A DNA stretch of 64,000 bases, taken from Parcubacteria group bacterium LiPW_41. GTDB lineage: Bacteria > Patescibacteriota > Minisyncoccia > UBA6257 > GWB1-50-10. Position 1 is the stretch's first letter, and the number at the start of each line of letters is the position of its first letter. A program made the position numbers and the translations under genes. Shown here in pieces: positions 1 to 16,387 of this stretch. The notes beneath the pieces were generated by a model, which was given only the letters and a program-made list of their open reading frames with translations, was not told the DNA's origin and made no database searches. Location: NCBI GenBank assembly GCA_007375535.1, contig VMEM01000001.1, positions 39,462-103,461 on the forward strand, read 5' to 3'.

Positions 1-48
1 ATAAGCCATCCTCAGAAACAAGTTTGCCATTTAAAAAATGAATCTGCT

Positions 49-747
49 TCATATTTGCTTATATTTTGAATCAAAGTCCCTTTTACACTTCATTAATCCC
101 CAACTAATAGTTGAATCAAATATCTCGTAAAAGACGTCAATATCCATTTCTCTACTAAAAATATTTGGTGGTAGACTTGGAGTTCCGAGAACGCGCATAT
201 TCCTTTCAACATCTTCTTTTTTTAAATTGTTAACAAAAGCATTATCGCCAATTCCTTGTAATATTAATATATTTCTTGATATACGAAGAAAATATTTTTC
301 AATATATGCGCGCTTGTCTTGCGATGAAAGTGTATTCAGAAAAAAATTTTGCCTGACTATTTGCAATCTTTCAATTGATCGAATTAACATGCTCTGCTCA
401 TACTCAAATCTTGTTACTTCGGAAAATTTCTCTTTAAAGATGTTGATTCCAATAATGCATAACCCATCAGCCAAATATTCAAGCTTAAACTCTCTCGTAA
501 AATACGAAAGATTATTTTCTACCTCGTCTTGTGTATATAAATTAATATCAAGTTTTTTGTGTTTCGTAGCAAGTAATCTAAACAATTCTCTGATATTTTT
601 ATCGATTTTTTCTACAATAACCACCGCATCAAAATCATTCACACTCTCTTTGTTCAAAATAGAACCATAGAGCAAAAAACATTTTATGTTTTTAGCACAA
701 GAAAGACCAGACACCTCTTTCTTTAATTTTTTAGCGACTTCAATCAT
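49..747 (-). CDS. Pol-beta superfamily nucleotidyltransferase, N-terminal NTase domain plus a C-terminal helical domain of unclear affinity
   Basis: Motif GS-x10-DFD (LYGSILNKESVNDFDAVVIV) fits the minimal NTase fold. The start lies 22 bp after the stop of the upstream helicase on the same strand. Confidence 0.6.
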   Translation of the reverse strand: MIEVAKKLKKEVSGLSCAKNIKCFLLYGSILNKESVNDFDAVVIVEKIDKNIRELFRLLATKHKKLDINLYTQDEVENNLSYFTREFKLEYLADGLCIIGINIFKEKFSEVTRFEYEQSMLIRSIERLQIVRQNFFLNTLSSQDKRAYIEKYFLRISRNILILQGIGDNAFVNNLKKEDVERNMRVLGTPSLPPNIFSREMDIDVFYEIFDSTISWGLMKCKRDFDSKYKQI

Positions 748-768
748 TATTGTATCTATATTGACACA

Positions 769-2544
769 TCAAGATAATTCTGGGAATCCCTCTTTTCCAA
801 AAACATAAAGCTTTGAAATTGCGCGCGTAAGTGCAATATATAACCCATCCTTTTTTATTTTCTTTAACTCTTTAACACGTTCCTCGTTTTCACAAATGTG
901 AGCACAGTCAAACATGCTTCTATTAACTCCAATAATACATACCACATCAAATTCCAATCCTTGCGATTGAACAAATGAAAGAATATGGATTCGCCCATCC
1001 TCACCAAATTTTTGCAACAATACATTCAATAATTTTTCATCGGTATAAAGTACCCCAAGCGTCTGCTCTCCCAAATTTTTTATCACACCTTCAAGACGTT
1101 GTATTTGTTCATCTTCCGATCCAAAGAATTCTTCTACCGACTCCCCTATTTCAACATAATCAGGAATATCCATGGAAAAACCAAGATCTTTTATATAATT
1201 TAAAATACTTCCAGTATTTCGATATGTTTTACCAAGTATAAAATTCGCCTCTTCGGGAATAACCTCTTGTATCTCATTCCACGAACGGATAGTGCCGATG
1301 CGAACCTGTTGTGAATAATCCCCAATATACACCATCGCGCTTGTTTTAACGCTTAAAAAACTTTTTAAGATTTTTAATTGCTCAGGAAGATAGTTTTGAA
1401 ACTCATCAACAACAATGAGGGAATACAAGACTTTTAATATTCTTTCTCTATCGTTAATTGAACACTTATTCAGATATGAACCCAACAAAATAGTTAGATC
1501 AAAACGATCAAGAAACCGGGCTCTCTTTTGTTCTAAAAACAGACCATACATTTTTTTTGAAAGATTTTTTTTATAAATTTCTGTAAGTAAGAGAAATGGA
1601 TTTTTTTTATAAACACCGTATTCCCCAAGCCTAAGCACCGAAAGCTTTTCGTATTCAAAGAGATCTTTTTCCTTTTCATTTTTTCCAAATCGATCGATAT
1701 ATTTATATTCCTTTATTTTCAATATATTAAATGCCCAACTAGAAAATGTAGTAATGAGGACATTCCGAATTCCAAGTTCCGGCAAAAGACTTGAGAAATA
1801 TTTCTTTGTGCCAACATCTTGAATAAAAATGACAATTGAATTTCCAGGAAACATTGGCGCAGTATTTGGAGCAAGTGCAAGATACGCAACGCGATGAAAA
1901 GCGAGCGTAGTTTTTCCGGAACCTGCCGGACCAGAGATAAGCGTAGAACACTTGTAATTCGCACGTATAATCGCATCTTGTCGCTTTTCCATTTTTTCTA
2001 CAATCTCAACAAGCGAAAAACTGCTTTTTCTTTTTGTAATTTTTTCCTGATAAATAAGTTGTTTCGGGGTTTCGATAGTTTCACGGGAAAAATATAAAAC
2101 ACGCCCATCAACGATAGTATAGTGCTCAACCGAAAGCATTGATGCCTTTATCATCTCCCCGCTTGGCAATGTATAACTTACATTTCCTGGTGGTTCAAAT
2201 CGAATTGATGCTATTGGAGAAACCCAAGAACTAATACCCTCCTCGATAAAATGAAATTTCGCAAAATAACAAATAAATGGTGCTCCATCATCTATTGTTA
2301 ACTCACATCGAGCAAAATAAAATGACCTATTTAATTCATTCAACTCATCAATACGCTCCCTTCGTTGTTGTCGAATATTAAACTGGACAAGTTGATCACC
2401 AGAACGAAGTTTAAGAATCTCACTGTCTTTCTGGGTTCGGGACTCTACCTTGCTCTTTTCTTCTTGAATTCGCCCACGAATATACTCAACGTGCTCACAA
2501 AGGCGCTTCATTAAAACTTCTTTTTGATCGCTCATAGCTTCCAC
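769..2544 (-). CDS. UvrD/REP superfamily-1 helicase with a ~190-aa N-terminal extension, similar in layout to HelD / DNA helicase IV
   Basis: Walker A GPAGSGKTT, DExx-like VVDEFQNY, and a C-terminal UvrD_C-like motif LYIALTRAISKLYV. No 2B insertion. The N-terminal part appears coiled-coil rich. Confidence 0.65.
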   Translation of the reverse strand: MEAMSDQKEVLMKRLCEHVEYIRGRIQEEKSKVESRTQKDSEILKLRSGDQLVQFNIRQQRRERIDELNELNRSFYFARCELTIDDGAPFICYFAKFHFIEEGISSWVSPIASIRFEPPGNVSYTLPSGEMIKASMLSVEHYTIVDGRVLYFSRETIETPKQLIYQEKITKRKSSFSLVEIVEKMEKRQDAIIRANYKCSTLISGPAGSGKTTLAFHRVAYLALAPNTAPMFPGNSIVIFIQDVGTKKYFSSLLPELGIRNVLITTFSSWAFNILKIKEYKYIDRFGKNEKEKDLFEYEKLSVLRLGEYGVYKKNPFLLLTEIYKKNLSKKMYGLFLEQKRARFLDRFDLTILLGSYLNKCSINDRERILKVLYSLIVVDEFQNYLPEQLKILKSFLSVKTSAMVYIGDYSQQVRIGTIRSWNEIQEVIPEEANFILGKTYRNTGSILNYIKDLGFSMDIPDYVEIGESVEEFFGSEDEQIQRLEGVIKNLGEQTLGVLYTDEKLLNVLLQKFGEDGRIHILSFVQSQGLEFDVVCIIGVNRSMFDCAHICENEERVKELKKIKKDGLYIALTRAISKLYVFGKEGFPELS

Positions 2545-2580
2545 AATTTCAAAATAGTAGCATATATTTTAACATTAAAA

Positions 2581-2610
2581 AACCACCTTTTATTAGGTGG
2601 TTTTTTTTAG
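2581..2610. terminator. Bidirectional intrinsic terminator hairpin (ACCACCT/AGGTGGT) flanked by A and T runs
   Basis: Perfect 7-bp stem with AT flanks, lying between the stop of the 2607-3071 gene and the helicase start. Confidence 0.6.
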
Positions 2611-3071
2611 TACTGAATTGCCTCTAACTCAGTCGCTTCTATTGTTTTTGCGTCTCTGATGTTTGACTTACTTTTCACCGTCACCATCATTCCTGCCTTT
2701 ATTGCATTCACGTCCAACGTCTCTTGTTTCATATTTCCCTTAGAATCAATCGAAGCGGGATACAATGCAGTAATTTTTGTTTCTCCACTAACAAACACTT
2801 CTCGATCTATCTTTTTTGCTGGCGTTCCGTCGGCATGTGGAAGATAGTCACTAAAATCTGCTGTTTCAATAATAAGTCTTGCACCCACCGCCTCTTTTAC
2901 CAACCCCGATACTGCAAAAATTTCTTTTGGTGGTTCTGGAAATACTAAACTTATTACATCACGTAAATTTTTTGTTCCTTTGGTGTTGCCCCAATAATAC
3001 CCCCCTACCGCGCCAACAACCAATCCAATGACGAGTGCAAGAATGATTAAGATGAGAATTTTTTTCTCCAT
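2607..3071 (-). CDS. Hypothetical membrane-anchored protein with an N-terminal TM helix
   Basis: The ORF runs 2607-3113. The likely start is MEKKILILIIL at 3071, followed by a hydrophobic helix. Confidence 0.45.
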   Translation of the reverse strand: MEKKILILIILALVIGLVVGAVGGYYWGNTKGTKNLRDVISLVFPEPPKEIFAVSGLVKEAVGARLIIETADFSDYLPHADGTPAKKIDREVFVSGETKITALYPASIDSKGNMKQETLDVNAIKAGMMVTVKSKSNIRDAKTIEATELEAIQY

Positions 3072-3085
3072 ATGTAAATTATAGC

Positions 3086-3385
3086 AAACGGAGAGAGCGA
3101 AATGAATATGCAAAGTATATTCATTTCCGAACGAAGTGAAGATAAAAGCGAAGCTTTATAGCAAATGGAATGAGGAAATGGACACTATGTGTACATTTCC
3201 GAATGAAATGCAGTTACAAGCAAAGCTTTATAGCAAACGGAGAGAGCGAAATGAATATGCAAAGTATATTCATTTCCGAACGAGTGCAGCTGCACGAAGT
3301 GCTATAGCAAGTGAAGAGAGGAAAATGAATACGAAGAAATTTATTTTCCGAACGAACGTAGCTGCACGAAGTGCTATACACTATT
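3086..3385. repeat. Tandem array of four ~74-bp units, each carrying a GGAAATG...CATTTCC hairpin
   Basis: Units start at about 3086, 3164, 3236 and 3310 and each begins TATAGCAAA. Units 1 and 3 are identical over 56 nt and include GAAATGAATAT-gcaaagt-ATATTCATTTC. Confidence 0.7.
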
Positions 3386-3389
3386 AAAT

Positions 3390-4622
3390 TTATACAATTT
3401 CAAAAAAACGGTGTTTACCAATACGGAGAATATCCCCTTTTTTTGTCGCTATCATTTCCTTCTCATCCTTCTTTTGCTCATCATTTATTTTTATTGCTCC
3501 TTGAATAATGAGACGTCGTGCCTCACCCCTACTCTCAACTCCCGCCTCAATAAGTAAATCAATAAGTGGAAGTGTCTTTGTGATTTTTAATTTTGGCGCA
3601 TCTTCTGGGCGCTCTTTCTTTGAAAACACTCGAACAAACTCTTCACGCGCCTCAGTTGCTGCTTTTGTTGAGTGATACAATTTCACCAATTCTTCTGCAA
3701 CATACAATTTTATATCCCGAGGATTTATTCCTTTCTTTAGTGCAATTTTTATTTCCTCAACATTTTTTTGTGGAATGAGTGTTGCAAGCTCCGCAATTGG
3801 AACAATAAGTTCGTCAGGTGCTGCCATCATCTTTCCAAACATCGCAGTTGGAACATCATCAAGATTGATAAGCGTCCCTTCGGTTTTACTCATTTTCTTT
3901 CCTGTTGCAGGATCTTCGAGTAAACGATTAGTGATAACAAATTTTTCTTTATTTCGATATATTCGCTGTACGTCACGTCCTACAAGCATATTAAATGTTT
4001 GATCAGTGCCACCAATTTCCAAATCAACATCCATTGCATATGAATCGTATCCTTGCATTAATGGATAAAAAAATTCATGCAAATGAATTGGCTTCCCTGC
4101 TTGCAAACGCTCCTGAAACATACTCCGTTCAATCATTTGTTGAACGGTGAAATGAGAAGAAAATTCTATAACCTCTTCAAATGTTAATTTTGATAACCAC
4201 TTTGCATTGAATTTTACCTGTGCTGCATTTTGACCAGAAAACCGCAACACTTTTGATGCTTGAGTTTTAAATGTTTTTAAATTTTCTTTTACTTGCGCAC
4301 TAGTGAGTGAAACGCGTGCAGCGAGCTTGTCAGTTGGATCTCCGATTCTTCCAGTAAAATCACCAAAAAGTACAAACACCTCATGTCCTAAATCCTGAAA
4401 CCTGCGGAGCATAATTAAATTCTCTGCATGTCCTAAATGTAAATGTGGACTCGTTGGGTCAATTCCTAAATACAAACGAATCTTTTTTCCTGAAAATAAC
4501 ACTTTCTCGAGTGCTCCCCTTGTTGGATATATTGAGTCAACTGAACGGGTAAGCAATTCTTCAATTGCTGACTTATCCGTTGATACTTTTACAACGCCTT
4601 TCATATCTACCCATACTATCAC
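3390..4622 (-). CDS. tyrS: Tyrosyl-tRNA synthetase
   Basis: HIGH-type motif HLGH, KMSKT motif (KKMSKTEGT), and a C-terminal S4-like domain. Confidence 0.9.
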   Translation of the reverse strand: MIVWVDMKGVVKVSTDKSAIEELLTRSVDSIYPTRGALEKVLFSGKKIRLYLGIDPTSPHLHLGHAENLIMLRRFQDLGHEVFVLFGDFTGRIGDPTDKLAARVSLTSAQVKENLKTFKTQASKVLRFSGQNAAQVKFNAKWLSKLTFEEVIEFSSHFTVQQMIERSMFQERLQAGKPIHLHEFFYPLMQGYDSYAMDVDLEIGGTDQTFNMLVGRDVQRIYRNKEKFVITNRLLEDPATGKKMSKTEGTLINLDDVPTAMFGKMMAAPDELIVPIAELATLIPQKNVEEIKIALKKGINPRDIKLYVAEELVKLYHSTKAATEAREEFVRVFSKKERPEDAPKLKITKTLPLIDLLIEAGVESRGEARRLIIQGAIKINDEQKKDEKEMIATKKGDILRIGKHRFFEIV

Positions 4623-5997: not shown

Positions 5998-6267
5998 GCG
6001 CTCGGATACCCTTCGAGTCCTAAAATACAAATACAAAAAATCGCTCTTCGAGCGATATTTTGTATTTGTGCCCTCGTGAGGACTTTCCTCACCCGTCGCT
6101 TTCGCTCCTCCTTTGGAATCCTGGGTTCCTCGCTTCCGCTCATCCTCGACAAGCTCGGATTCGCTTTTCGCATTCGCGCGCTCGGATACCCTTCGAGTCC
6201 TAAAAATACAAATACAAAAAATCGCTCTTCGAGCGATATTTTGTATTTGTGCCCTCGTGAGGACTCG
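5998..6267 (-). repeat. tRNA-Arg trailer element, containing two 87-bp near-identical direct repeats
   Basis: The direct repeats are at 5998-6084 and 6178-6267. Each carries the last 17 nt of tRNA-Arg, a hairpin ACAAATACAAAA…TTTTGTATTTGT and an antisense T-arm (AGGACTCGAAGG). The 93-bp GC-rich spacer contains GAGCGAAAGCGACGG. Confidence 0.8.
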
Positions 6268-6321
6268 AACCTCAATTACGAGATCCGCAATCTCGCGTCC
6301 TATCCATTGAACGACGAGGGC
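6250..6321 (-). tRNA. tRNA-Arg, anticodon GCG as read
   Basis: Hand-folded cloverleaf with acceptor GCCCTCG/CGAGGGC, T-loop GGTTCGAGTCC and anticodon loop TTGCGGA. No encoded CCA. Confidence 0.75.
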
Positions 6322-6342
6322 GTAACATACACTTGTATGTTG

Positions 6343-6413
6343 TGCGGGCAAGGAGAATCGAACTCCTGTCTCAACCTTGGCAAGGTCGTGTTCTACCACT
6401 AAACCATGCCCGC
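6343..6413 (-). tRNA. tRNA-Gly(GCC)
   Basis: Cloverleaf with acceptor GCGGGCA/TGCCCGC, anticodon loop TTGCCAA and T-loop TTCGATT. Confidence 0.8.
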
Positions 6414-6458
6414 AAAACTATTTCTATTTAACACTAGAATACAAAAAAAATCCAGTTT

Positions 6459-6620
6459 TTATTGGGTAGGAGGTGGGCCGTACGGACCACGAACCGATGG
6501 TGGCCCAACTGGCCCCTTAAATGTCGTTTTTGGCTCCTCTGTTTTTTTAAAAACTGATGAAAAAATAAATAAAAGTATTATGCAAATACAAACAATAATC
6601 AAAAAAATAATTTTCTTCAT
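6459..6620 (-). CDS. Small secreted peptide with a signal peptide and a Gly/Pro-rich collagen-like tail (speculative)
   Basis: MKKIIFLIIVCICIILLFIFSSVF followed by KGPVGPPSVRGPYGPPPTQ. The competing plus-strand ORF overlaps tRNA-Gly. Confidence 0.3.
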   Translation of the reverse strand: MKKIIFLIIVCICIILLFIFSSVFKKTEEPKTTFKGPVGPPSVRGPYGPPPTQ

Positions 6621-6624
6621 ACAC

Positions 6625-7107
6625 TTAAAAACCAATAAAGTCTGCGAGAATACTCCCTGCAGTTTCTTCGTGTTCAATTTCAGGAAGATATTCCGCAAGA
6701 TATGGGCGAACTGACTTTAGTGTTATAACATCGATAGGGATATGAATATGTGGTTTTGTGTTTCCTCTCTGATGAATCACCAATTCATGGAGTTGGTTCA
6801 TACGCTCTCGAACAGAAAATGCAATAAGTTTTTCATATGGATATATTTTCTTTCCGATCCAAAGTCCTTGTTTATCCAAACGAAATTCATAAATAATAGG
6901 ACGTCGACGAGAAAAAGAAAAAAGTAAACCAGTTGCAGTAAGAATAAAAACAGCAAATAAAAAGTTTTTTTGCCACAAAGAAACAACAAAGAAGACGATT
7001 GCGACGAGACTGATGATAACATACCATCCAATTTCCTTTTCGCGATGTTCGTGTTCAGCGGCGCGCCACAACAATTCTTTTCGTTCTACTTTTTGTACTG
7101 GCTCCAT
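6625..7107 (-). CDS. Hypothetical membrane protein with 2 TM helices
   Basis: 160-aa ORF with two hydrophobic helices. No recognisable motif. Confidence 0.5.
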   Translation of the reverse strand: MEPVQKVERKELLWRAAEHEHREKEIGWYVIISLVAIVFFVVSLWQKNFLFAVFILTATGLLFSFSRRRPIIYEFRLDKQGLWIGKKIYPYEKLIAFSVRERMNQLHELVIHQRGNTKPHIHIPIDVITLKSVRPYLAEYLPEIEHEETAGSILADFIGF

Positions 7108-7124
7108 AATATATTTATTATAGT

Positions 7125-7156
7125 ATAAACCGCACAGTAATGTGCGGTTTATTTTG
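7125..7156. terminator. Hairpin AAACCGCACA/TGTGCGGTTT in the tRNA-Cys trailer
   Basis: Perfect 10-bp stem with a GTAA loop. Confidence 0.5.
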
Positions 7157-7228
<72 letters not shown>

Positions 7229-7242
7229 ATTATTATACTTTT

Positions 7243-7551
7243 TTATTTCGAATCTTCAGACTTCTCTGGTTCTACAATTTCAAATTTCAAATATGGCATC
7301 GGCTTTATATTGAGCTTTTTTAGGAGTTTAAACCTAATATCACTCGCCGCTCTTGAAACTATTTTATATACCTCCAAACTCTTTTCATACGGAATGATAC
7401 CAAGCTTTACATTCGCATGCAATAAATCCTTTTCAACTTCAGTCTCCATTATTGTTACTAAGGCTCCCTCAAAATTAAAATCACGAGAAAACATTTTTCC
7501 CAATTCTTCCGTGATTAATGACGATAGTTTTAGATCTCTAAATGGCCGCAT
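7243..7551 (-). CDS. rbfA: Ribosome-binding factor A
   Basis: RbfA-like sequence lying downstream of infB, as in the conserved gene order. Confidence 0.8.
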   Translation of the reverse strand: MRPFRDLKLSSLITEELGKMFSRDFNFEGALVTIMETEVEKDLLHANVKLGIIPYEKSLEVYKIVSRAASDIRFKLLKKLNIKPMPYLKFEIVEPEKSEDSK

Positions 7552-7568
7552 ATTTTGAATTAAATAAA

Positions 7569-9038
7569 TTAGTCTAGAAACACTAGATGATTTCCAATTC
7601 GTATATCTGATTCACACTCTACAAGCATTCCCACCTCCATGTCCTTCTCTGCTTCTGCAACATCCTTTTTATTTGATTGAAGATTGAGAATTCTTCCCTC
7701 TCCCGTTTTTCTCGTTCCATGCCACACTTCAAATGATTCATTTCTCAATATTGGACCACACAACACTTTTCCACCAATCACTCGCTCTTTTCCTTTTGGT
7801 TGTCCAAACACTCCAAGAATTTCAAGTGTTCTCTTTTCTTTTTCAATTGCGGTTTTTGCATATTCAGTAAGTGCATCAACAAGTTCATAAATAATATCTG
7901 AAGTAATAATATTTATTTTTTTTGTCTCACGCATGTTTTGAGCTGCTTTATCAATTTTTGTGTGAAACCCAATGATAGTTGCTTTCATCCCCTCTGCATC
8001 CTTTGTATCATTTTCAGTAATTGAACCAACAGAAGCTTTTATAATAATAATCGGAAGTGTAGTAACAAGTGATTCAATAGTATCTTTTAATACCTCAAGC
8101 GATCCAAGCTCATCTGCTTTCAAGAACAACGGAACCCTTTTTGATACATCATCTTCTGCAATCAAACTTTTTGTCACCTCGTGCTGTTCTCGTTCAAATT
8201 GTTCTAATGATGTACGGAGTACTTTCTCGTCTCTATGTGCACAAAATACCTCACCCACTTTTGGAGAATTTTCAAATCCAAATACAATTGCCGGTGCACT
8301 TGGAATTATTTCTTTTGCAGTTTTTCCTAAATAGTTTTCAAGTATTTTTACTTTTCCAATTGCAGTATGGGTTGCAATCATAGCTCCTTGCTCAAGTGAT
8401 CCATTTTTTACAATTACACTCGTCATCACACCACGTTTCGCATCCGATTTTACCGAAATGACAACGCCTGACGAAACATGATCTCCCGTACAATGGATAT
8501 CTTCAAGTTCTGATGCAAGAAGTAAAAGATCAAGTAGATCGGAAACACCCTCCCCTGTTTTTGCAGAAATTGCATGCCATGAAACATCCCCTCCTCGTCC
8601 CTCAAGATACACCCCTAATTGCATTAAATCATTAATTGCTTTATCAATATCTGCACCAGGTTTATCTATTTTGTTTATAGCAACAACAAATGGAACTTTT
8701 TCAGCAAGAATATATTTCAATGCATCTTTTGTTTGTGGTTTTACGCCATCATCTGCTGCTACAACTAAAATTGCTAAATCAGCAACACGTGCTCCACGAG
8801 CGCGCATCTTTGAAAATGCTTCATGTCCTGGTGTATCAATAAAAGTTATTTTTTGTCCCGCGTGTTCAATTTCGTATGCACCGATTGATTGAGTAATTCC
8901 TCCCGCCTCACGAAGTGCAACATTGGTACTTCGAATATAATCAAGTAATGTTGTTTTTCCATGATCAACATGACCCATAATAACCGCTATTGGCGGTCTT
9001 CGTTCTGGATTTTTTTGTTCTACTTTTTTGGGGGTCAT
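7569..9038 (-). CDS. infB: Translation initiation factor IF-2, short form without the long N-terminal region
   Basis: G-domain motif GHVDHGKTTLLD and a full IF-2 C-terminal domain architecture. Confidence 0.9.
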   Translation of the reverse strand: MTPKKVEQKNPERRPPIAVIMGHVDHGKTTLLDYIRSTNVALREAGGITQSIGAYEIEHAGQKITFIDTPGHEAFSKMRARGARVADLAILVVAADDGVKPQTKDALKYILAEKVPFVVAINKIDKPGADIDKAINDLMQLGVYLEGRGGDVSWHAISAKTGEGVSDLLDLLLLASELEDIHCTGDHVSSGVVISVKSDAKRGVMTSVIVKNGSLEQGAMIATHTAIGKVKILENYLGKTAKEIIPSAPAIVFGFENSPKVGEVFCAHRDEKVLRTSLEQFEREQHEVTKSLIAEDDVSKRVPLFLKADELGSLEVLKDTIESLVTTLPIIIIKASVGSITENDTKDAEGMKATIIGFHTKIDKAAQNMRETKKINIITSDIIYELVDALTEYAKTAIEKEKRTLEILGVFGQPKGKERVIGGKVLCGPILRNESFEVWHGTRKTGEGRILNLQSNKKDVAEAEKDMEVGMLVECESDIRIGNHLVFLD

Positions 9039-9059
9039 AATAATGGGAAAATACCTTCG

Positions 9060-9286
9060 AAAGTTGCTTCGCTTTGAAATAATTAAAAAATGTACATTTT
9101 TTAATATGTAGTCCCAAGGGGAATCCTTTCAACTAATCACTCGCCGTCGCTCGTGATTGTTTCAAGCCTGGGCTCACGGTGTATTCTACTGAATACACAT
9201 CGCTCCGCCCTTCGTTTCCCCACACGAAACAAGAAATTGTTTCGTTTTGGGATAATTAAAAAAATCTAAAAATTTTTTTAATCAGT
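9060..9286 (-). repeat. tRNA-Glu trailer element
   Basis: The distal end carries TAGTCCCAAGGGGAATC (9109-9125), a copy of the tRNA-Glu 3' end, with similar A/T hairpin flanks. The core contains GGGGAAACG, the hairpins GTGTATTC/GAATACAC and CGAAACAA/TTGTTTCG, and GAGCGACGGCGAG. Confidence 0.75.
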
Positions 9287-9356
9287 AGTCCCAAGGGGAA
9301 TCGAACCCCTATTTCCGCCGTGAAAGGGCGATGTCCTAACCGTTAGACGATGGGAC
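9287..9356 (-). tRNA. tRNA-Glu(UUC)
   Basis: Anticodon loop CTTTCAC and T-loop GGTTCGATTCC. Resembles canonical bacterial tRNA-Glu. Confidence 0.8.
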
Positions 9357-9367
9357 CAAACTGGGTG

Positions 9368-9454
9368 CGGAGGCGGAAGGATTCGAACCTTCGGAGGAGT
9401 TCCCCCCTCGACTTCTTAGCAGGAAGCCGCTTTCGACCGCTCAGCCACGCCTCC
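9368..9454 (-). tRNA. tRNA-Ser(GCU), type II
   Basis: Anticodon loop CTGCTAA, a long variable arm, discriminator G and acceptor GGAGGCG. Confidence 0.8.
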
Positions 9455-9571
9455 ACCCACATAACAGAGTGTACGATAAATATTCAATTTATTCAAGAAA
9501 CTAATACTTGGTAAACACATAATACTATCACGCTTTACGCGTCATCCTAATATAAGATATAATTTTTATAT

Positions 9572-10075
9572 ATGTCGAAGAGAAAGTGGACTCAAAAACA
9601 ACTCGAAGAAGCAATTAATTCTTCAACAAGCAATCGACAGGTTTTAAAAAAGTTGGGATTAAAGGAGGCGGGAGGAAATTATAGCCAAATAAAAAAATAC
9701 TCAAAAGAATTTAAAATCGATACTAGCCATTTCAAAGGTCAAGCGTGGAACAAAGGAAAGAAGGGACTAGGGAAGCCAAGAATCCCTTTATCAGAAATTT
9801 TGGTAGAAAATAGTAATTTCCAAAGTTTTAAATTAAAAAAAAGGTTATTTGCAGAAAAATTAAAATCTGAGTATTGTGAACACTGTGGGTGGGCAAAAAA
9901 ATCAAAAGATGGTAGGATTCCTCTTGAGCTCGATCATATAAATGGAAGAAGAAACGACAACAGAATAGAGAACCTTCGTATTCTTTGTCCAAATTGCCAC
10001 TCATTACAACCAACACATAGAGGTAAAAACATAAAGACTGCCCAGATGGCGGAACGGTATACGCGCAACACTTAA
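9572..10075 (+). CDS. HNH homing-endonuclease-like protein
   Basis: HNH motif CEHCGW…LELDHINGRRNDNRIENLRILCPNCHSL. The last 36 nt of the ORF overlap tRNA-Leu. Confidence 0.75.
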   Translation: MSKRKWTQKQLEEAINSSTSNRQVLKKLGLKEAGGNYSQIKKYSKEFKIDTSHFKGQAWNKGKKGLGKPRIPLSEILVENSNFQSFKLKKRLFAEKLKSEYCEHCGWAKKSKDGRIPLELDHINGRRNDNRIENLRILCPNCHSLQPTHRGKNIKTAQMAERYTRNT

Positions 10076-10122
10076 AATGTTGTGACCCAACGGTCTTGTG
10101 GGTTCGAATCCCACTCTGGGCA
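10040..10122 (+). tRNA. tRNA-Leu(UAA), type II
   Basis: Acceptor GCCCAGA/TCTGGGC, anticodon loop CTTAAAA and a long variable arm. Confidence 0.8.
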
Positions 10123-10350
10123 CAAATTCTACAACACCCTTCATGGGTGTTGTAGAATTTATTCATCAAGGGATTCGAAGGATATTCGAGCGCCCGAATG
10201 GGAAGAGTGAGTAAAATGAACGAAAGCGAGAAACCAAGGCTTCGGAGGAGGCACGAGAGTGCCGGAGGAGAAGAAATCCAACGTCGACCTACCAGTGAAT
10301 AAACCAAACACAAAACAATACCGCCAGTCCTTGGACTGGCGGTATTTTTA
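10123..10350 (+). repeat. tRNA-Leu trailer: terminator hairpin, a divergent GC-rich structured element, and a second terminator
   Basis: Hairpin TTCTACAACACCC/GGGTGTTGTAGAA, then the antisense T-arm AAGGGATTCGAAGG, GAACGAAAGCGAG, the hairpin GGCAC-GAGA-GTGCC, then ACCGCCAGTCC/GGACTGGCGGT with a T-run. Confidence 0.6.
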
Positions 10351-11001
10351 TTTTGCTTCTTTTTTTTCTTTCTTAAACAACTGATATGAATAAACAAAAA
10401 GTCCTATAATTCCGAAAATGAGTGGAATAAGAAACACAAGAAATGAGACAGTGGGAAATACAACACCAAGACATGCAACAACCCCTATAATTTTAAATAC
10501 TTTCCCTCCGAGTTTATGCGTTTTATCCCAAACCATTTCACTTGAAAGTGTCCATGGATTTCGAATACCCATAGTCCAATTCTGTTTTACCCGTTCAATA
10601 AGGAATCCCAATCCAATAAACAAGAAGCCAAAGAGAAACGGAAACACACGAGCGGGATCAATCCACGCTACAAGATTTGTTCCGATGATAAATAGTTGAA
10701 GGAGAAAAAAGAATGAACAGAGAAGAACAAGAAACGCATCATATATTCCCCTCATCTTTTCAATCACCTCTTTTTTTGGATCAAAATGGGGTACTGCAAC
10801 AAGAATTATGAGTAATACAAGTAAGATAATTGGAACAAATAAAATACCCCACAACTTCGACATGTATCCATTTACTTCCCCCATCGCCCCCCAGTGCGAC
10901 GCAATCTCGTCGGGAAGTACTGGGTAAAAATAAACCCCAACAAGTAGCGAGAGAACAATAATACCTAATGAAATTGCTACACCTTTAGTAAAAATCTTCA
11001 T
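10348..11001 (-). CDS. SdpI/YhfL-family membrane protein
   Basis: DUF1648-like YPVLPDEIASHW and the SdpI motif GIRNPWTLSSEMVWDKTH. Multi-TM. Confidence 0.7.
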   Translation of the reverse strand: MKIFTKGVAISLGIIVLSLLVGVYFYPVLPDEIASHWGAMGEVNGYMSKLWGILFVPIILLVLLIILVAVPHFDPKKEVIEKMRGIYDAFLVLLCSFFFLLQLFIIGTNLVAWIDPARVFPFLFGFLFIGLGFLIERVKQNWTMGIRNPWTLSSEMVWDKTHKLGGKVFKIIGVVACLGVVFPTVSFLVFLIPLIFGIIGLFVYSYQLFKKEKKEAK

Positions 11002-11063
11002 AATTTCTATTATAGTACCACCTACTACACAAAAATTAAATTGTCTGATATTCTAATCCAGTT

Positions 11064-11151
11064 GGAAGGTTGGCAGAGTGGTCGAATGCGCCGCACTTGA
11101 AATGCGGTATGCCGAAAGGCATCGGAGGTTCGAATCCTCCACCTTCCGCCA
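11064..11151 (+). tRNA. tRNA-Ser(UGA), type II, with encoded CCA
   Basis: Acceptor GGAAGGT/ACCTTCC, anticodon loop CTTGAAA, a long variable arm, and an encoded 3' GCCA. Confidence 0.8.
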
Positions 11152-11155
11152 ACAT

Positions 11156-11190
11156 AAAAAGTACACCACTTGGTGTACTTTTTATGTTTT
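11156..11190. terminator. Hairpin AGTACACCA/TGGTGTACT with A/T flanks
   Basis: Perfect 9-bp stem. Confidence 0.6.
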
Positions 11191-11372
11191 TGATGTGTGG
11201 ATTCGAACCGCAGGCTCCCTATTTTCTTAGTGAGCGAAGCGAGCTTAGAAAATAGCAGTGTCGCACATTGTGCGACCCGCAGTCATTATTTGAGAACGTA
11301 GGTCTCGAGTTCAGCAGAACGAGAGGAGAATCACTAACTTGTAAGCTCATTCATGCGATATATAATTGCTAG
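11186..11372 (+). repeat. Degenerate trailer-element copy after tRNA-Ser(UGA)
   Basis: Begins with the antisense T-arm GTGGATTCGAACC. Contains GTGAGCGAAGCGAGC, the hairpin GTCGCAC att GTGCGAC, and GGTCTCGAG. Confidence 0.45.
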
Positions 11373-11921
11373 GTGCAATACATAACATTTTTCTTTCTCA
11401 TTATCACACTCCTAGTTATTACTGGAGTCATTTATTCACTTTGGCGACTCTTGTTTAAAAAGAATCATGCTCCATTCATCCCAATCCCACATGACGCAAT
11501 TCCGTCACTTGTGGAACATGCTGACATAAATAAAGGAGATGTTGTGTATGATCTTGGGTGTGGAGATGCACGAATACTAAAAATATTAGCGAAAAAATAT
11601 TCTGATGCTCAATTCATAGGAATTGAAAAGGCATTATTCCCCTATATAATTGCAAAAATTTCTTCACTTCGATTTCCAAATATAACAATACGACGAAAAA
11701 ATTTCTTTAAGATACCAATTGCAAATGCAACAGTAGTGATAACCTATTTATTTCCAAGCGTTATGGATCTTTTGCTTCCAAAATTTGAAAAAGAACTTCA
11801 CAACACAAAACTCCTCTCATTTGATTTTCCCTTCTCAAAAAAAGAATATGAAACAATGTATGTAATAAAGGAGCGACAAGGGAAACTTGGATCAAAGATA
11901 TTTATATACCGATTTGAATAA
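11373..11921 (+). CDS. Class I SAM-dependent methyltransferase with an N-terminal TM anchor
   Basis: Motif I VVYDLGCGDARIL. Confidence 0.65.
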   Translation: MQYITFFFLIITLLVITGVIYSLWRLLFKKNHAPFIPIPHDAIPSLVEHADINKGDVVYDLGCGDARILKILAKKYSDAQFIGIEKALFPYIIAKISSLRFPNITIRRKNFFKIPIANATVVITYLFPSVMDLLLPKFEKELHNTKLLSFDFPFSKKEYETMYVIKERQGKLGSKIFIYRFE

Positions 11922-12070
11922 AAAATTGTTTTAGCGTATCATTTCACCATATAATATGAATAAGAAAAATAAACTTGCAAAAAAGAAACATTCGAAGAAA
12001 GCAGGAAAAAAGATAAATTTGCGCGCTCGATAAAACTTTATAAAAAACACCCCACAATTGTGGGATGTTT

Positions 12071-12676
12071 TTATTTATACAACTCACAGATCGCATCAAT
12101 CTGTTTATGCAAATATTCTCCGCGCCACTTATCCTTTTTAGGTAATCGTTTTGTGAGCAATGAAACAAGTGGTAATAAATGATTGCGCGTCTCCTCAATC
12201 TGAGTTTTTTGTTTTTCTCTTGTGCAGTTTTTCAATGTTCGAAGATTATGTAATCGATCACACAACTTCACTAAAATTGTTTTGTTGTCTCCATATATTG
12301 AAAGTCGCTTGAAATAACCTTCTTTTGGTTTCTTTGTAAGAAGTTTCAATCCAATAACTACTTCCTTTCCAAAATTTAACTCAATTCGATACGGAGAAAG
12401 GATGTGTGAATCCTCTAGCACGTCGTGTAACAATGCCATAATAATTGTCTGCGCATCATTCACCTTCAATTCTTCTATTAAAATATGAGCAACTGATTTT
12501 GGATGTTCAAAATATCGGGTCCCGTCGTCTCTCTCTTGGCCACGATGTCCATATTTTGAAAGAATATACGCAGTCTCAATTGCCTCAAGTTCTTTTGGAG
12601 ACATTATTGGCTCCAACTTTGCCATAAACTCCACACGACCAAGATCAATGTATCCATCAGTGTTTGGCTGCTTCAT
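12071..12676 (-). CDS. HD-domain hydrolase of the RelA/SpoT type, similar to the small alarmone hydrolases
   Basis: HD motif LLHDVLED and the downstream DRLHNLRTL. Confidence 0.65.
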   Translation of the reverse strand: MKQPNTDGYIDLGRVEFMAKLEPIMSPKELEAIETAYILSKYGHRGQERDDGTRYFEHPKSVAHILIEELKVNDAQTIIMALLHDVLEDSHILSPYRIELNFGKEVVIGLKLLTKKPKEGYFKRLSIYGDNKTILVKLCDRLHNLRTLKNCTREKQKTQIEETRNHLLPLVSLLTKRLPKKDKWRGEYLHKQIDAICELYK

Positions 12677-12700
12677 TGTTATTAGTATAATTGAGAACTA

Positions 12701-13885
12701 TTAATCAATCACCTCCCTTCTTAGCCGTTCAGGAATTCTAACGAGAATCTCATAAGGGATCGTTCCACACAAACCCGCTATAGAAGTGACAGAGTTTTTA
12801 TTTGATAACTCCTTACTTATCACACAGACCTCGTCTTCCTCTTTTATATTGAAAACTGAAGACACATCAACACTCACCATATTCATACTCACCCTCCCAA
12901 TAATTGAGCAAACGATATTTTGAATATAAATTGTACCAGAGTTAGAAAGTCGACGATCAATACCCTCAAAATATCCAACAGGAATTATTGCGATTTTCAT
13001 TTCTTGATTGGCGGAAAATGTTGCATTATATCCGACAAAATCACCTCGTTTTATTGTTTTAATTCCTACAACCACCGAAAACATCTCAAGCGCAGGAATG
13101 AGGTTTAATTTCCTTTCAGGAACCGGATCAAACCCATATAAACCAATCCCAAGACGAACAACATTTGCATCAAATTGCTTTATATATTGAGTTCCCGCTG
13201 TCGCGCTGATATGGAAATAGCGAATAGCATTAAACTTCGAACGAAATATTGGAACAACGGTGTTCCAAATAGTCTTTTGTCTCTCTACATGTAAGGAATT
13301 TTCAACATCAGCATCAGCAAGATGAGAACAGACTCCATCGATATTGATGTTTTTATTTGATTGAATAAGAGAAATGACATAATCAATATCTTCATATCGA
13401 ATTCCTTGCCGATTCATGCCGGTATCACACTTAATATGAAATATTTGTGGTTGTTTTAATGTTTCAGCAATTTCTCGTACTTGATGTGGAGTAGAAAGTG
13501 TAAAAATAATATTTTTATCGGTATTTTTTATAATATTTGATAAAAATGAATATCCTATCACTAGTATTGGTGTTTTAATATTTTCATTGCGAAGCATAAG
13601 TGCCTCATAGTATGAATCAACGACAAAAAATGGGACGCTTTTTTCGTCAAGAATTTTTGCAACAGGAATTAATCCATGTCCATACGCATTACTTTTTAAC
13701 ACTGGAGCAATCTTTATATCAGATTGTATATTTGAAAACACCTCATAATTATGAAGTAACGCTGATCGAGAAATCTTAATACGCACCAACGGCTCATAAT
13801 CAGTTAATGATTTTCTAAATTTACGAATAAAGTTTCGAAGAAAAACGAGCATATTATTATATATTATTTTCGCTCTCAAACTCAT
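12701..13885 (-). CDS. alr: Alanine racemase
   Basis: PLP-lysine motif VLKSNAYGHG. Confidence 0.85.
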   Translation of the reverse strand: MSLRAKIIYNNMLVFLRNFIRKFRKSLTDYEPLVRIKISRSALLHNYEVFSNIQSDIKIAPVLKSNAYGHGLIPVAKILDEKSVPFFVVDSYYEALMLRNENIKTPILVIGYSFLSNIIKNTDKNIIFTLSTPHQVREIAETLKQPQIFHIKCDTGMNRQGIRYEDIDYVISLIQSNKNINIDGVCSHLADADVENSLHVERQKTIWNTVVPIFRSKFNAIRYFHISATAGTQYIKQFDANVVRLGIGLYGFDPVPERKLNLIPALEMFSVVVGIKTIKRGDFVGYNATFSANQEMKIAIIPVGYFEGIDRRLSNSGTIYIQNIVCSIIGRVSMNMVSVDVSSVFNIKEEDEVCVISKELSNKNSVTSIAGLCGTIPYEILVRIPERLRREVID

Positions 13886-14660
13886 GATATTCTAAATCAA
13901 ACTGGAAATTATTTTTAAAGTATTCTTTTGTCTCCTCAATGGTTGTAAATCCCAACTCATTTTTTCCACTAAACAAATCAAAATAGGCATCTCTATATTT
14001 TTGCAACTTAAACGGGATTTTTTTTGGATCTACATCCCCGCACCGATTCATCTCAATCCATCCATTTTTCGAATATATTCTTTCTCTATTTTTTCCACTA
14101 ACACTCTCATTTATTTGGTTTTCACTTAAAAATATCTGAAGATCTCCCTCACTCGGCAAAACTCCTTTATTAAAAAGAATAGGAAGATTTTCTTGCTTTT
14201 CTTTATCAAGCTCAAACGCATCAAGAAAATCTGGATGCGAGTGCGCATAAAAAAATCCATTATTCTTTTTACCAACACCATGAGTACGCGCCCCAACAGA
14301 AAAAAAGAAAACAGAGTCGCCAACTTTTTCAACTGCTAATTCATATTGATTTTTTTTCCTAACAAACTCTTCAAAAATAGTATTCACCAATAAATTTTCT
14401 TTTGTCTCGACAAAAAAACCAACTTGGTCTTTTGTATAATTTGGAACATTTGGTAGTAAGGCCCAAATATCTTCTACATTTTTCTCCCTAAGTGGGCCTT
14501 CAATACTTGAAACGGGAAGTTTTTGTTTCCACAAATCAAACTCATTTTTTTCTTCTTCTGAATATTTTCCTAATCCAGATTTTTCCATGAGTTTCTTTAC
14601 TTGAACTTCTTTTTCAATATTAGGAGGAAACATTGGAAACTGATCAAACTTTTGTTTCAT
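13857..14660 (-). CDS. Hypothetical protein
   Basis: 267-aa ORF whose stop overlaps the alr start. No recognisable motif. Confidence 0.45.
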   Translation of the reverse strand: MKQKFDQFPMFPPNIEKEVQVKKLMEKSGLGKYSEEEKNEFDLWKQKLPVSSIEGPLREKNVEDIWALLPNVPNYTKDQVGFFVETKENLLVNTIFEEFVRKKNQYELAVEKVGDSVFFFSVGARTHGVGKKNNGFFYAHSHPDFLDAFELDKEKQENLPILFNKGVLPSEGDLQIFLSENQINESVSGKNRERIYSKNGWIEMNRCGDVDPKKIPFKLQKYRDAYFDLFSGKNELGFTTIEETKEYFKNNFQFDLEYHEFESENNI

Positions 14661-14782
14661 TATTCAATAATAGAAGAACCTGTGAATTTAGCCAACGAAA
14701 TAGGTTGTGGTGTTCTATCAGGTGTAAAACCCTAAAAAAGTAAAATGACCTACTGGGATTGCACAGATGCTCATTGTTTTTG

Positions 14783-14853
14783 TGGACCTACGGGGAGTCG
14801 AACCCCGACTTAGCGCATGCCATGCGCTTATTCTACCATTGAATTATAGGCCC
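14783..14853 (-). tRNA. tRNA-Ala(GGC)
   Basis: G3:U70 in the acceptor (GGGCCTA/TAGGTCC), anticodon loop ATGGCAT and T-loop GGTTCGACTCC. Confidence 0.8.
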
Positions 14854-15530
14854 ATATTTTTTCTTAATATTTCAAAGATAACTAAAAATTCATTAAAAAT
14901 ATTAGCAGAAAAATAATCTATTCGACACACGCCTTTATAATTCATTTTTCGTGATTTTTTATTAATAGAACGAGGATCAACTCGCGCTTTATAAAAACAA
15001 GATAAAGGAATATTAGTCAGCTTCGACCAAAAAATTTCCAACTTTTCGATGTTTTGATCATCCCTACACTGTAGGGTACACCTAAACTTACTCTCGTCAA
15101 CCTCATAACAACTCCTTAAAAGATTTAGAAATAATTTAATAATTAATGGATCAGAGTTGCCAATGGTAATACTCCCCTTTTTTGTTTTAGATCCCTCAGC
15201 TAAATAAAGCATAGCAAGAGTAATTTTTTTTGTTTTTTTGTCGTTTAATTCACCAATAACCCACTTATTTTCATTTAATAAATTTTCTAGGTATTTTTTT
15301 CTTTTCTCTTTTTTTACTTCCAGTGCTTTCTGTCTCGCCACCTTCAAATCTTTTACTCGTTTTGTTTCTAATTTTTGTTTTTGAAGATTTGAAAGTTCTA
15401 TACCTTTTAACCAAAATGAAATCGTACTTTTTGGAATGTTGGAACCAAGTGCTCTATTAATTTGCAGAAATGAATAACCCTTTTTTCTCAGGGCTATCAC
15501 ACGTTCTCTCATATTTTTTTGGGTGCTCAC
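14844..15530 (-). CDS. LAGLIDADG-family homing-endonuclease-like protein with an N-terminal HTH
   Basis: Single LAGLIDADG motif LAMLYLAEGSK. Its stop overlaps the 5' end of tRNA-Ala by 10 nt. Confidence 0.7.
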   Translation of the reverse strand: MSTQKNMRERVIALRKKGYSFLQINRALGSNIPKSTISFWLKGIELSNLQKQKLETKRVKDLKVARQKALEVKKEKRKKYLENLLNENKWVIGELNDKKTKKITLAMLYLAEGSKTKKGSITIGNSDPLIIKLFLNLLRSCYEVDESKFRCTLQCRDDQNIEKLEIFWSKLTNIPLSCFYKARVDPRSINKKSRKMNYKGVCRIDYFSANIFNEFLVIFEILRKNMGL

Positions 15531-15569
15531 TATTCAATTGTACCACAGAAGTCATCCATGTCCAAAAAT

Positions 15570-15755
15570 TTTGTGGGCGATAAGGAATCGAACGTCGTCT
15601 CATCAGAATGAGACTCCCACGAACCCAGCGGTTCGTGCGCTCCGCCACTGGGAAACTCCCGTTTCCCCGACCCCTTTCCCAGTTCGAGTCCTGTATATCA
15701 CAAGATATAAAAACAACGCATTTGCTTTAGAAATAGTGCATTGTTTTTATCTATG
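15570..15755 (-). repeat. tRNA-Val(GAC) trailer element
   Basis: In tRNA orientation: a terminator hairpin, the antisense T-arm ATACAGGACTCGAAC, GGGAAAGGGGTCGGGGAAACGGGAGTTTCCC, the hairpins CACGAACC/GGTTCGTG and GTCTCAT/ATGAGAC, and a sense end GTTCGATTCCTTATCGCCCAC. Confidence 0.75.
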
Positions 15756-15829
15756 TGGGCGATACAGGACTCGAACCTGTGACCTTTACAATGTCAATGT
15801 AACGCTCTAACCAGCTGAGCTAATCGCCC
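15756..15829 (-). tRNA. tRNA-Val(GAC)
   Basis: Acceptor GGGCGAT, anticodon loop TTGACAT and T-loop GGTTCGAGTCC. Confidence 0.8.
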
Positions 15830-15834
15830 TTATA

Positions 15835-16155
15835 TTATTTTTCCTTCTTTTCTTTTTTCAATTCTTTCACCGCTTCAGTAAGTGAAACATCAGGATGTTT
15901 TGCAACCGCCTCAAGCATATCTGCAAGCTTCACATATCCGTCATTGAGTGGAAGCTCTTTAGCCTTCATAAACCAATGCTTCTTTTTTCCTCCATCGGCT
16001 TTTTCCAGCTCCAACGCAATCATATCTGGCGTCTCATCATTCTTTAATTTCCTCCCGAGATCTGCCTCTGTTTTTTCAAAGCGTTTATATACTTCTTTTT
16101 TATCCTCCTTCTTCAATTTGTCCATGCCAAAGCTGAAGTGATCAAACATAATCAC
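15835..16155 (-). CDS. Hypothetical small charged protein
   Basis: 106-aa ORF, Lys/Glu-rich. Confidence 0.4.
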   Translation of the reverse strand: MIMFDHFSFGMDKLKKEDKKEVYKRFEKTEADLGRKLKNDETPDMIALELEKADGGKKKHWFMKAKELPLNDGYVKLADMLEAVAKHPDVSLTEAVKELKKEKKEK

Positions 16156-16224
16156 ATAATACCTGAGACATAAAAAAATACAAATCTTTACTCTAATCTA
16201 AGATTAATCTATAAATAGACAGAA

Positions 16225-16296
16225 GCCCTTGTAGTTCAACGGATAGAACAGTGCCGTCCTAAGGCGAAGATGGGAGTTCGATTCTCTCCAAGGGCA
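16225..16296 (+). tRNA. tRNA-Arg(CCU)
   Basis: Acceptor GCCCTTG/CAAGGGC, anticodon loop GTCCTAA and T-loop GTTCGATTC. Confidence 0.75.
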
Positions 16297-16300
16297 CATA

Positions 16301-16387
16301 GGAGGGGTGGCTGAGTGGTCGAAGGCACACGACTCGAAATCGTGCAGGGGTGAAAGCCCCTCGAGAGTTCAAATCTCTCCCCCTCCG
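16301..16387 (+). tRNA. tRNA-Ser(CGA), type II
   Basis: Acceptor GGAGGGG/CCCCTCC, anticodon loop CTCGAAA, a long variable arm and discriminator G. Confidence 0.8.

Follow-up and report, generated by a model that had tools for sequence, protein, structure and literature searches.

A compact HelD-like ATPase gene next to a nucleotidyltransferase gene cluster in a Parcubacteria genome

Do a helicase gene and a nucleotidyltransferase gene that follow one another at a spacing of 21 nt form a functional pair, or are they mere neighbours? The question is raised by one end of a 64,000-nt stretch of DNA (hereafter the window) from Parcubacteria group bacterium LiPW_41 (a metagenome-assembled genome; contig VMEM01000001.1, positions 39,462 to 103,461), where the minus strand carries a gene for a superfamily 1 (SF1) helicase-like ATPase and, directly 3' of it, a gene for a Pol-beta-type nucleotidyltransferase (NTase). 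A first-pass annotation had read the two as co-transcribed and possibly as a defence or abortive-infection pair. The features that it named, i.e. two open reading frames (ORFs) on the same strand, the motifs GPAGSGKT and VVDEFQ, a UvrD_C segment and the DFD of the NTase, were all located on the minus strand by Pfam searches and motif positions. Given their homologues and invariant residues, neither ORF is a chance ORF. We favour, with a probability of roughly 0.7, the reading that two independent units abut at positions 748-768: a compact HelD-like motor and the first gene of a conserved NTase cluster.

Gene neighbourhoods

To compare neighbourhoods, NTase lineages were defined at 90% identity, which gave 18 distinct lineages. 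The helicase gene adjoins the NTase gene in two of them, LiPW_41 itself and locus L012; the other 16 showed no adjoining helicase gene and, on contigs that reach that far, none at a distance of up to 6-8 kb. The closest relative of the helicase (66% identity) is encoded at locus L011. Here the upstream order cupredoxin-ClpP-tyrosyl-tRNA synthetase (TyrRS)-p154-helicase is kept, the downstream genes are unrelated, and there is no NTase gene. Since L011 keeps the upstream synteny without the NTase, the synteny break falls exactly in the 21-nt spacer. No NTase gene was found at two further helicase loci (L013 and L014). Relatives of the NTase are fused to NUDIX, histidine phosphatase or GNAT domains, and no fusion to a helicase was found among them. 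In size, the helicase family exceeds the NTase family by a factor of more than 30.

In a neighbor-joining tree, the L012 helicase was not the sister of the LiPW_41 helicase, whose sister was the L011 protein, encoded without an NTase. The adjacency therefore appears either to have arisen twice or to be old and mostly lost. The proposal of a functional or defence pair was not supported by this neighbourhood check, with adjacency in two of the 18 NTase lineages and the closest helicase relative lacking the NTase. The first-pass annotation had named two outcomes that would speak against its proposal, a pair not conserved as neighbours in other genomes and an NTase falling into an aminoglycoside or lincosamide family. 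The pair is indeed not conserved; the NTase lies outside such families and has the fold alone in common with them.

The HelD-like protein

The first-pass annotation had given the helicase 591 aa, which is correct for the mechanical ORF from a GTG. The ATG at 2535, which gives 588 aa, is favoured as the real start both by the consensus N-terminus of the family (MxxxKxxLL) and by genes called independently on the source contig. Pfam identified generic UvrD-type domains only (UvrD-helicase, AAA_19 and UvrD_C). Among NCBIfam models, the best was HelD_BACSU (2.9e-26), whose match spans aa 59-286 and starts well upstream of the ATPase core; the helicase IV model scored 5e-5. In a sequence search of PDB, the top match was Bacillus subtilis HelD (6wvk_H, 2e-23), and PcrA followed at 3e-7. 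Because the core might have carried the HelD matches, aa 1-175 were searched separately. With a family profile of this segment, the sole PDB match at E<=1 was aa 39-179 of B. subtilis HelD (E 6.5e-10), a region inside the secondary-channel arm of HelD; the single sequence of the segment found nothing in PDB, so that the family profile was needed. More than 1000 homologues align with the helicase over the full length at 42-66% identity. Members of the family are 586-620 aa long and, where source names are given, come mostly from Patescibacteria; JGI names for them are 'DNA helicase IV' or 'PcrA'.

We then compared the protein with HelD as defined by domain limits and twelve motifs (PMC7749167 Suppl. 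Table 2, Newing et al. 2020; PMC8655204), counting motif conservation over 44 homologues. An AlphaFold2 (AF2) model of the helicase (mean predicted local distance difference test, pLDDT, 80.8) contains two antiparallel helices that form a hairpin (aa 2-42 and 45-70), after which comes a beta-rich domain (aa 75-163). The tip of the hairpin is conserved and acidic, with the consensus P-E-D-Q. The SF1 core of domains 1A and 2A that characterizes HelD is present, with Walker A (GPAGSGKT) and Walker B (VVDEFQ) both conserved across the homologues. Domain 2A is contiguous (aa ~436-588), and the model contains neither a 1B-like domain nor a 2B domain. The first-pass annotation was right about the N-terminal extension (~175-200 aa), the lack of room for a 2B insert and the HelD-like layout: an N-terminal arm is present, 2B is missing, and the best matches by sequence and by fold are HelD proteins.

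All 12 published HelD motifs could be located. Motifs I and IV-XII carry 0-4 substitutions, with IV departing most, whereas motif II shows G to A and motif III shows SWV in place of DWR. In motif III, S103, W104 and P107 are invariant in 44/44 homologues, and the family pattern is S W V/I/F [A/S] P. When the model was compared with PDB using Foldseek, its seven best neighbours were all RNA polymerase (RNAP)-bound HelD chains from B. subtilis and Mycobacterium smegmatis (2e-22 to 9e-17), with PcrA, UvrD and Rep trailing at ~1e-15. A literature search turned up no publication that connects HelD with Patescibacteria or the Candidate Phyla Radiation, and no Patescibacteria member of the described HelD classes. 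On account of the HelD homology, the departures in motifs and length and this gap in the literature, we designate the 588-aa protein a compact HelD-like variant; as judged from its sequence, it belongs to a family widespread in Patescibacteria and would act on RNAP.

The nucleotidyltransferase, its cluster and the surrounding locus

The NTase showed no significant match in Pfam (Polbeta 0.24) or NCBIfam, and no PDB sequence match even with a profile. It has 29 close homologues, and a family-profile search of 1.84 billion cluster representatives returned 107 matches. Across 30 sequences, the residues G28, D38, D40 and D67 are invariant; they provide the G28-S29 pair, the D38xD40 motif (DFD, nt 628-636) and the third carboxylate; the motif TREFKLEY is also invariant. 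Of the 67 remote relatives identified by the profile search, 31 matched Pfam Polbeta (best 7.6e-13) and 18 matched NTP_transf_2. Based on the invariant residues and these remote relatives, the protein is a genuine Pol-beta-type nucleotidyltransferase, and the minimal NTase that the first-pass annotation had seen at its N-terminus was confirmed.

An AF2 model of the NTase (pLDDT 90.5) consists of an NTase domain (aa 1-~110) and a helical bundle (aa ~113-229). Employing Foldseek against PDB, we found as its best neighbours the aminoglycoside nucleotidyltransferases (ANTs) ANT(9) (6xz0, 1.4e-5, query-normalised TM-score (TMq) 0.52) and AadA (5lpa, 2.6e-5), at 12-14% identity and a root-mean-square deviation (rmsd) of ~8 A. 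Further structural neighbours were ANT(4'), LinB, MNT antitoxins and HalB of the Hailong system. For the C-terminal half, the first-pass annotation had offered a domain like that of kanamycin nucleotidyltransferase (KNTase) and ANT or, alternatively, a HEPN-like domain. The half is helical and ANT/KNTase-like. Its invariant residues are R123, E126, R132, K151, Y152 and R155; a HEPN identity was ruled out because there is no invariant histidine, and neither the absence of an Rx4-6H motif nor the ANT-type bundle fits it. No HEPN gene adjoins the NTase gene on the source contig, as would be expected of an MNT-HEPN toxin-antitoxin system. No relatives of the NTase were found in viral contigs, and the protein belongs to no PADLOC or PHROG family (strongest PADLOC candidate, 0.013).

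A conserved cluster of five genes, seen in three gene orders, includes the NTase gene in about 15 Parcubacteria lineages and in nearly all NTase lineages whose flanks are readable. Its other members encode a class IV aminotransferase, a NUDIX hydrolase, a peptidase S51-like protein and p284, a protein of 284 aa. Most often the genes are arranged as S51-NUDIX-p284-NTase-aminotransferase, and they overlap or lie 0-40 nt apart. The LiPW_41 order, NTase-aminotransferase-S51-NUDIX-p284, is a circular permutation of it that places the NTase gene first. The aminotransferase gene adjoins the NTase gene in 15 of the 18 lineages. In LiPW_41, the TGA of the NTase gene overlaps the ATG of the aminotransferase gene (ATGA, window 49-52). 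The complete aminotransferase gene (L001:10696-11538 on the source contig) encodes 280 aa and matches Pfam Aminotran_4 at 4.2e-42; beyond the window edge it is followed tightly by the S51-like, NUDIX and p284 genes, and then by three small ORFs.

Domain fusions among relatives of the NTase give independent evidence against a helicase-NTase unit. A NUDIX-NTase fusion occurs in four 50%-identity cluster representatives, a His_Phos_1-NTase fusion was confirmed by hhalign (93%, 3e-7), and an NTase-GNAT fusion is also present among the relatives. Invariant H16, R70, E171 and H205 of p284, together with its motifs 'SSKxRAxET' and 'AHG', suggest a divergent histidine phosphatase; an assignment as a firm histidine phosphatase was dropped, the evidence being motifs and sub-threshold scores. 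L012 and L016 carry just p284, NUDIX and NTase, so the core module seems to be NTase plus NUDIX plus phosphatase. Readings of the cluster as a folate (PabC/NudB), cobalamin, peptidoglycan-recycling or alarmone pathway are not supported by the expected partner genes and are not claimed.

Several further observations concern the cluster and its relatives. Ion channel-NTase and NTase-alpha/beta hydrolase fusions were also seen. Elsewhere, the cluster is flanked by a gene for an APH-family kinase (L008, 9829-10770) or by genes for a CYTH triphosphatase and an EamA transporter (L010, 3473-4957), and these flanking genes may indicate that the substrate is a small molecule, either phosphorylated or a nucleotide. 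Downstream of the cluster in LiPW_41 (L001:13540-14111) lie two tandem overlapping ORFs of 98 and 95 aa, which are probably paralogues because they have in common the N-terminal motif 'I-x-WRDA-x-YS'. The two ORFs have no family match and, among the operon versions compared, are present only in that of LiPW_41.

The coordinates of the locus are collected in Table 1. According to the first-pass annotation, the two genes were separated by 22 bp and bracketed by terminators. The spacer measures 21 nt, and no terminator-like fold or structured element was found in it. Upstream, there is a terminator-like hairpin between a membrane-protein gene and the helicase gene, which a simple terminator scanner did not call; downstream of the NTase gene there is no terminator, because the ATGA overlap runs directly into the aminotransferase gene. 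Given the short, hairpin-free spacer, co-transcription of the helicase and NTase genes, which had been considered likely, is plausible in the LiPW_41 genome. The locus is flanked by housekeeping genes (ClpP, TyrRS, IF-2, tRNAs) and genes for metabolic enzymes, and its GC content is uniform, with no shift at the locus.

Table 1. Positions of features at the locus (window numbering unless a locus is named)
Feature	Nucleotides	Amino acids	Strand	Remarks
Compact HelD-like SF1 ATPase gene (predicted)	769..2535	1-588	minus	588 aa from ATG at 2535
Helicase mechanical ORF	769..2544		minus	591 aa from GTG
N-terminal domain, equivalent of the secondary-channel arm	2011..2535	1-175	minus	AF2 model and PDB profile match
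S-W-V-S-P, counterpart of HelD motif III (Trp-cage tryptophan)	2215..2229	103-107	minus	aligned to B. subtilis DWRAP
Walker A, GPAGSGKT	1909..1932	202-209	minus	invariant in 44/44 homologues
Insert splitting domain 1A, at the clamp-arm position	1420..1767	257-372	minus	116 aa, four helices
Walker B, D-E-F-Q	1396..1407	377-380	minus	D, E and F invariant
Spacer between helicase stop and NTase start	748..768		minus	21 nt; boundary of two synteny blocks
NTase gene	49..747	1-232	minus	232 aa; two-domain, Pol-beta-type
Class IV aminotransferase gene, first 17 codons	1..52		minus	gene cut by window edge
Bidirectional terminator-like hairpin	2578..2608			12 bp and U-tract; free energy (dG) -18.2 kcal/mol, z -2.97
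NTase cluster loci	L001:10001-13526 with window 1-747; L006-L010; L015-L031

The gene upstream of the helicase gene (window 2607-3113, minus strand) encodes p154, a predicted membrane-anchored protein of 154-168 aa with no family match and with a 70% identity copy in L011. Because p154-helicase synteny is kept in L011, p154 may be the true conserved neighbour of the helicase. In the 276-nt spacer that separates the TyrRS and p154 genes (window 3100-3390), a unit of ~72 nt is directly repeated about four times in degenerate form (62-83% identity), and the spacer has no Rfam match. Farther away, two 100%-identical copies of ~88 nt (window 5998-6084 and 6178-6265), 180 nt apart and each with a 20-bp hairpin, were noted; the second overlaps the 3' end of a tRNA-Arg(gcg) gene at 6249-6321, and the copies might represent a duplication either of a tRNA 3' end (att-like) or of a terminator. 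The region 6249-16388 is unusually rich in tRNA genes, with 11 in ~10 kb on both strands among genes for IF-2 and RbfA and small ORFs.

Competing readings and comparison with known systems

Several results weigh against two independent units, of which one is HelD-like. The score of HelD_BACSU, 91.6 bits, is far below the NCBIfam equivalog cut-off of 419, and other HelD-type models also score under their cut-offs (HelD_MYCSM, 35.1 vs 1051; HelR, 48.1 vs 750). DWR[A/S]P, described as absolutely conserved in HelD (PMC8655204; PMC7749167), is not matched, since the Asp and Arg are replaced while the Trp and Pro are kept; the model segment that includes this Trp motif has a pLDDT <50. The insert at the clamp-arm position, 116 aa (114-134 aa in the family), is less than half of the 257 aa between motifs VII and VIII in B. 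subtilis HelD. Global superpositions of the model onto HelD by Foldseek are poor (TM-score 0.39-0.49, rmsd ~18 A), which is expected of a protein with mobile arms. On the side of the cluster, the scores of p284 as a histidine phosphatase are weak (Pfam 4e-4, below the cut-off; PDB 0.04; hhalign probability 8.5%). As for the neighbourhoods, those of the helicase were sampled at five loci only. Locus L012 has the helicase and NTase genes in the reverse order (p284-NUDIX-NTase-helicase); there, the start of the helicase gene overlaps the end of the NTase gene by 8 nt, an overlap consistent with the N-terminus of the helicase family. About five lineages have the NTase gene at the edge of the cluster, and in two of them this helicase gene lies outside it, for which we roughly estimate a chance of ~1-2%. 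The residual signal from L012 is suggestive and exceeds naive chance, yet it falls far short of deciding the matter, and the remaining evidence outweighs it.

If the two proteins nevertheless worked together, HelD-type rescue of RNAP might be combined with a drug-modifying enzyme of the ANT fold against an RNAP-targeting or other antibiotic. The common strand, the 21-nt spacer free of a terminator, the recurrence of the adjacency in a non-sister lineage and at the cluster edge, and the antibiotic adenylyltransferases as nearest folds of the NTase all point in this direction; in other phyla, HelD/HelR proteins have a known connection to resistance against rifamycins and share their regulation with enzymes that modify drugs (PMC12802891). 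Such a functional pair is unlikely in view of the 16 NTase lineages with no adjoining helicase, the unrelated genes downstream of the 66%-identical helicase in L011 under the same upstream synteny, the lack of an NTase in L013 and L014, the fusions of the NTase to NUDIX, phosphatase and GNAT domains but never to a helicase, and the far larger helicase family. An anti-phage defence or abortive-infection module, e.g. a Gabija-like GajB or a DRT/Nhi-like helicase with the NTase as effector or signal generator, has been largely refuted, and we regard it as extremely improbable. PADLOC does match the helicase to GajB, RTasHel, AbiO and Nhi (best 6.7e-14), and the fold of the NTase also resembles MNT antitoxins and the Hailong NTase HalB, but the PADLOC matches span generic UvrD-type segments only and in strength fall far behind the match to HelD, PHROGs likewise give generic matches for the helicase, and neither resource yields anything significant for the NTase. 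No GajA/OLD-type partner, reverse transcriptase, HEPN or mobile-element gene is nearby, the flanks are housekeeping and metabolic with no shift in GC, and viral contigs hold no NTase relatives. Whereas defence genes are patchy, helicases of this family occur widely across Patescibacteria at a uniform length, and the sampled loci lie among ordinary chromosomal genes.

Each protein could also be something more familiar. The Pfam domains UvrD-helicase and UvrD_C, the JGI names, the strong Foldseek matches to PcrA, UvrD and Rep, and the lack of the DWR motif and of a full-size clamp arm would all suit a helicase with an ordinary role in DNA repair or replication (of the UvrD/PcrA/Rep type or like Escherichia coli helicase IV) that is not associated with RNAP. 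We consider this improbable, because the protein has neither 1B nor 2B, domains that UvrD, PcrA and Rep need for unwinding, because its N-terminal domain on its own is specifically homologous to the secondary-channel arm of HelD, and because HelD is ahead by sequence (2e-23 vs 3e-7), by fold and in NCBIfam (2.9e-26 vs 5e-5 for helicase IV). For the NTase, a plain resistance enzyme of the aminoglycoside/lincosamide type is suggested by its best structural neighbours (ANT(9), the ANT(3'')(9) AadA, ANT(4') and LinB), by the GNAT-fused relatives, which are reminiscent of bifunctional enzymes combining an ANT with an aminoglycoside acetyltransferase (ANT/AAC), and by the APH-family kinase gene beside the cluster in L008. 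This is very unlikely: identity is 12-14%, with a TM-score of ~0.5 and an rmsd of ~8 A, sequence-level matches are missing in Pfam, NCBIfam and PDB, and the distribution is restricted to a few Parcubacteria lineages (107 of 1.84 billion representatives). Operon partners that are tightly linked and vertically conserved, and fusions to NUDIX and phosphatase domains, do not characterize a resistance cassette. Another reading, to which we give little credence, is that NTase, NUDIX and the histidine-phosphatase-like protein form an undescribed nucleotide-based system of a few Parcubacteria lineages, whose translationally tight linkage to the compact HelD-like protein, present in different arrangements in two non-sister lineages, would reflect a real coupling to RNAP rescue. 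The trio might then make and hydrolyse a nucleotide that serves as a signal or carrier (a synthase/hydrolase pair), or provide a salvage route by metabolite nucleotidylation, with the aminotransferase and S51 proteins as frequent add-ons and NUDIX-NT, His_Phos-NT and NT-GNAT as fused forms.

Under the preferred reading of two independent units, a separate function can be proposed for each. By analogy with the HelD proteins of B. subtilis and M. smegmatis, the acidic-tipped N-terminal hairpin of the helicase would enter RNAP's secondary channel, and the 1A/2A ATPase 'torso and head' would sit on the downstream face of the enzyme. Turnover of ATP by the compact protein may help to free stalled RNAP from nucleic acids; its smaller 1A insert implies that prying of the clamp would be weaker or different. 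The NTase may nucleotidylate a small metabolite, probably one bearing a nucleotide or a phospho or amino group, and the NUDIX and phosphatase proteins would process that metabolite. In LiPW_41, the NTase cluster would have landed directly 3' of the helicase gene and is probably read through from the helicase promoter. Such read-through does not make the helicase a part of the NTase system.

Descriptions of HelD so far cover Firmicutes, Actinobacteria, Bacteroidia and Deltaproteobacteria. A Patescibacteria family of ~600-aa proteins, numbering in the hundreds, with a secondary-channel arm and with the clamp arm reduced to a stub would represent a minimal form of HelD and would suggest that recycling of RNAP is kept even where genomes are extremely reduced. 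For the enzyme chemistry of Parcubacteria that have not been cultivated, a concrete handle is offered by the NTase cluster and its domain fusions. As a 'system', helicase and NTase are mostly an artefact of the order in which genes lie at this locus, and recognising this averts a false annotation as a new defence pair. What is new here, the HelD variant and the orphan NTase cluster, is of modest novelty.

Among known systems, the NTase resembles ANT(9) and the ANT(3'')(9) AadA (PDB 6XZ0 and 5LPA) in size and in the combination of a Pol-beta NTase domain (GS, DxD and third carboxylate) with a C-terminal helical bundle. It differs from them in its low identity, in lying outside the curated ANT and Lnu sequence families and in being encoded in a conserved enzyme operon instead of a resistance cassette. 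Mycobacterial MutT1, in which NUDIX is fused to a histidine-phosphatase domain as one nucleotide-processing unit (PMC11784022), has no nucleotidyltransferase, aminotransferase or S51 component. Its combination of NUDIX with an RHG-type histidine phosphatase nevertheless parallels NUDIX plus p284 and the NUDIX-NT and His_Phos-NT fusions, a parallel in architecture.

HelD proteins of the described classes are 654-939 aa long, and DWR is kept in all of them (PMC8655204). In B. subtilis HelD, the secondary-channel arm comprises aa 1-203, and the clamp arm (aa 292-538), inserted in 1A, pries the primary channel open (PMC7749167). Compared to this Class I protein (PDB 6WVK/6ZCA), the compact helicase is shorter (588 vs 774 aa), as are its motif VII-VIII stretch (116 vs 257 aa) and its hairpin (by ~27 aa); the clamp arm is cut to four helices, motif II has A instead of G, SWV[A/S]P stands in place of DWRAP, and overall identity is 18%. 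The M. smegmatis HelD/HelR (Class II; PDB 6YYS and 8Q3I) and the Class III deltaproteobacterial HelD (PMC8655204) follow the same four-part plan, and their arms, like that of the compact helicase, are shorter than the Class I arm. M. smegmatis-type HelD proteins gave the second-best structural matches (5.6e-21). In contrast to Class II, the compact helicase has no primary-channel (PCh) loop insertion, and the sequence alignment with that class is limited to its Walker A segment (aa 176-222, E 3.9e-4). B. subtilis HelD remains the top match by sequence and by fold: both proteins have the SF1 core of 1A and 2A, including Walker A and B but neither 1B nor 2B, an N-terminal antiparallel hairpin with a globular domain that are homologous at the profile level (arm alone, E 6.5e-10), an insert at the same site of 1A as the clamp arm, and recognisable motifs I and IV-XII.

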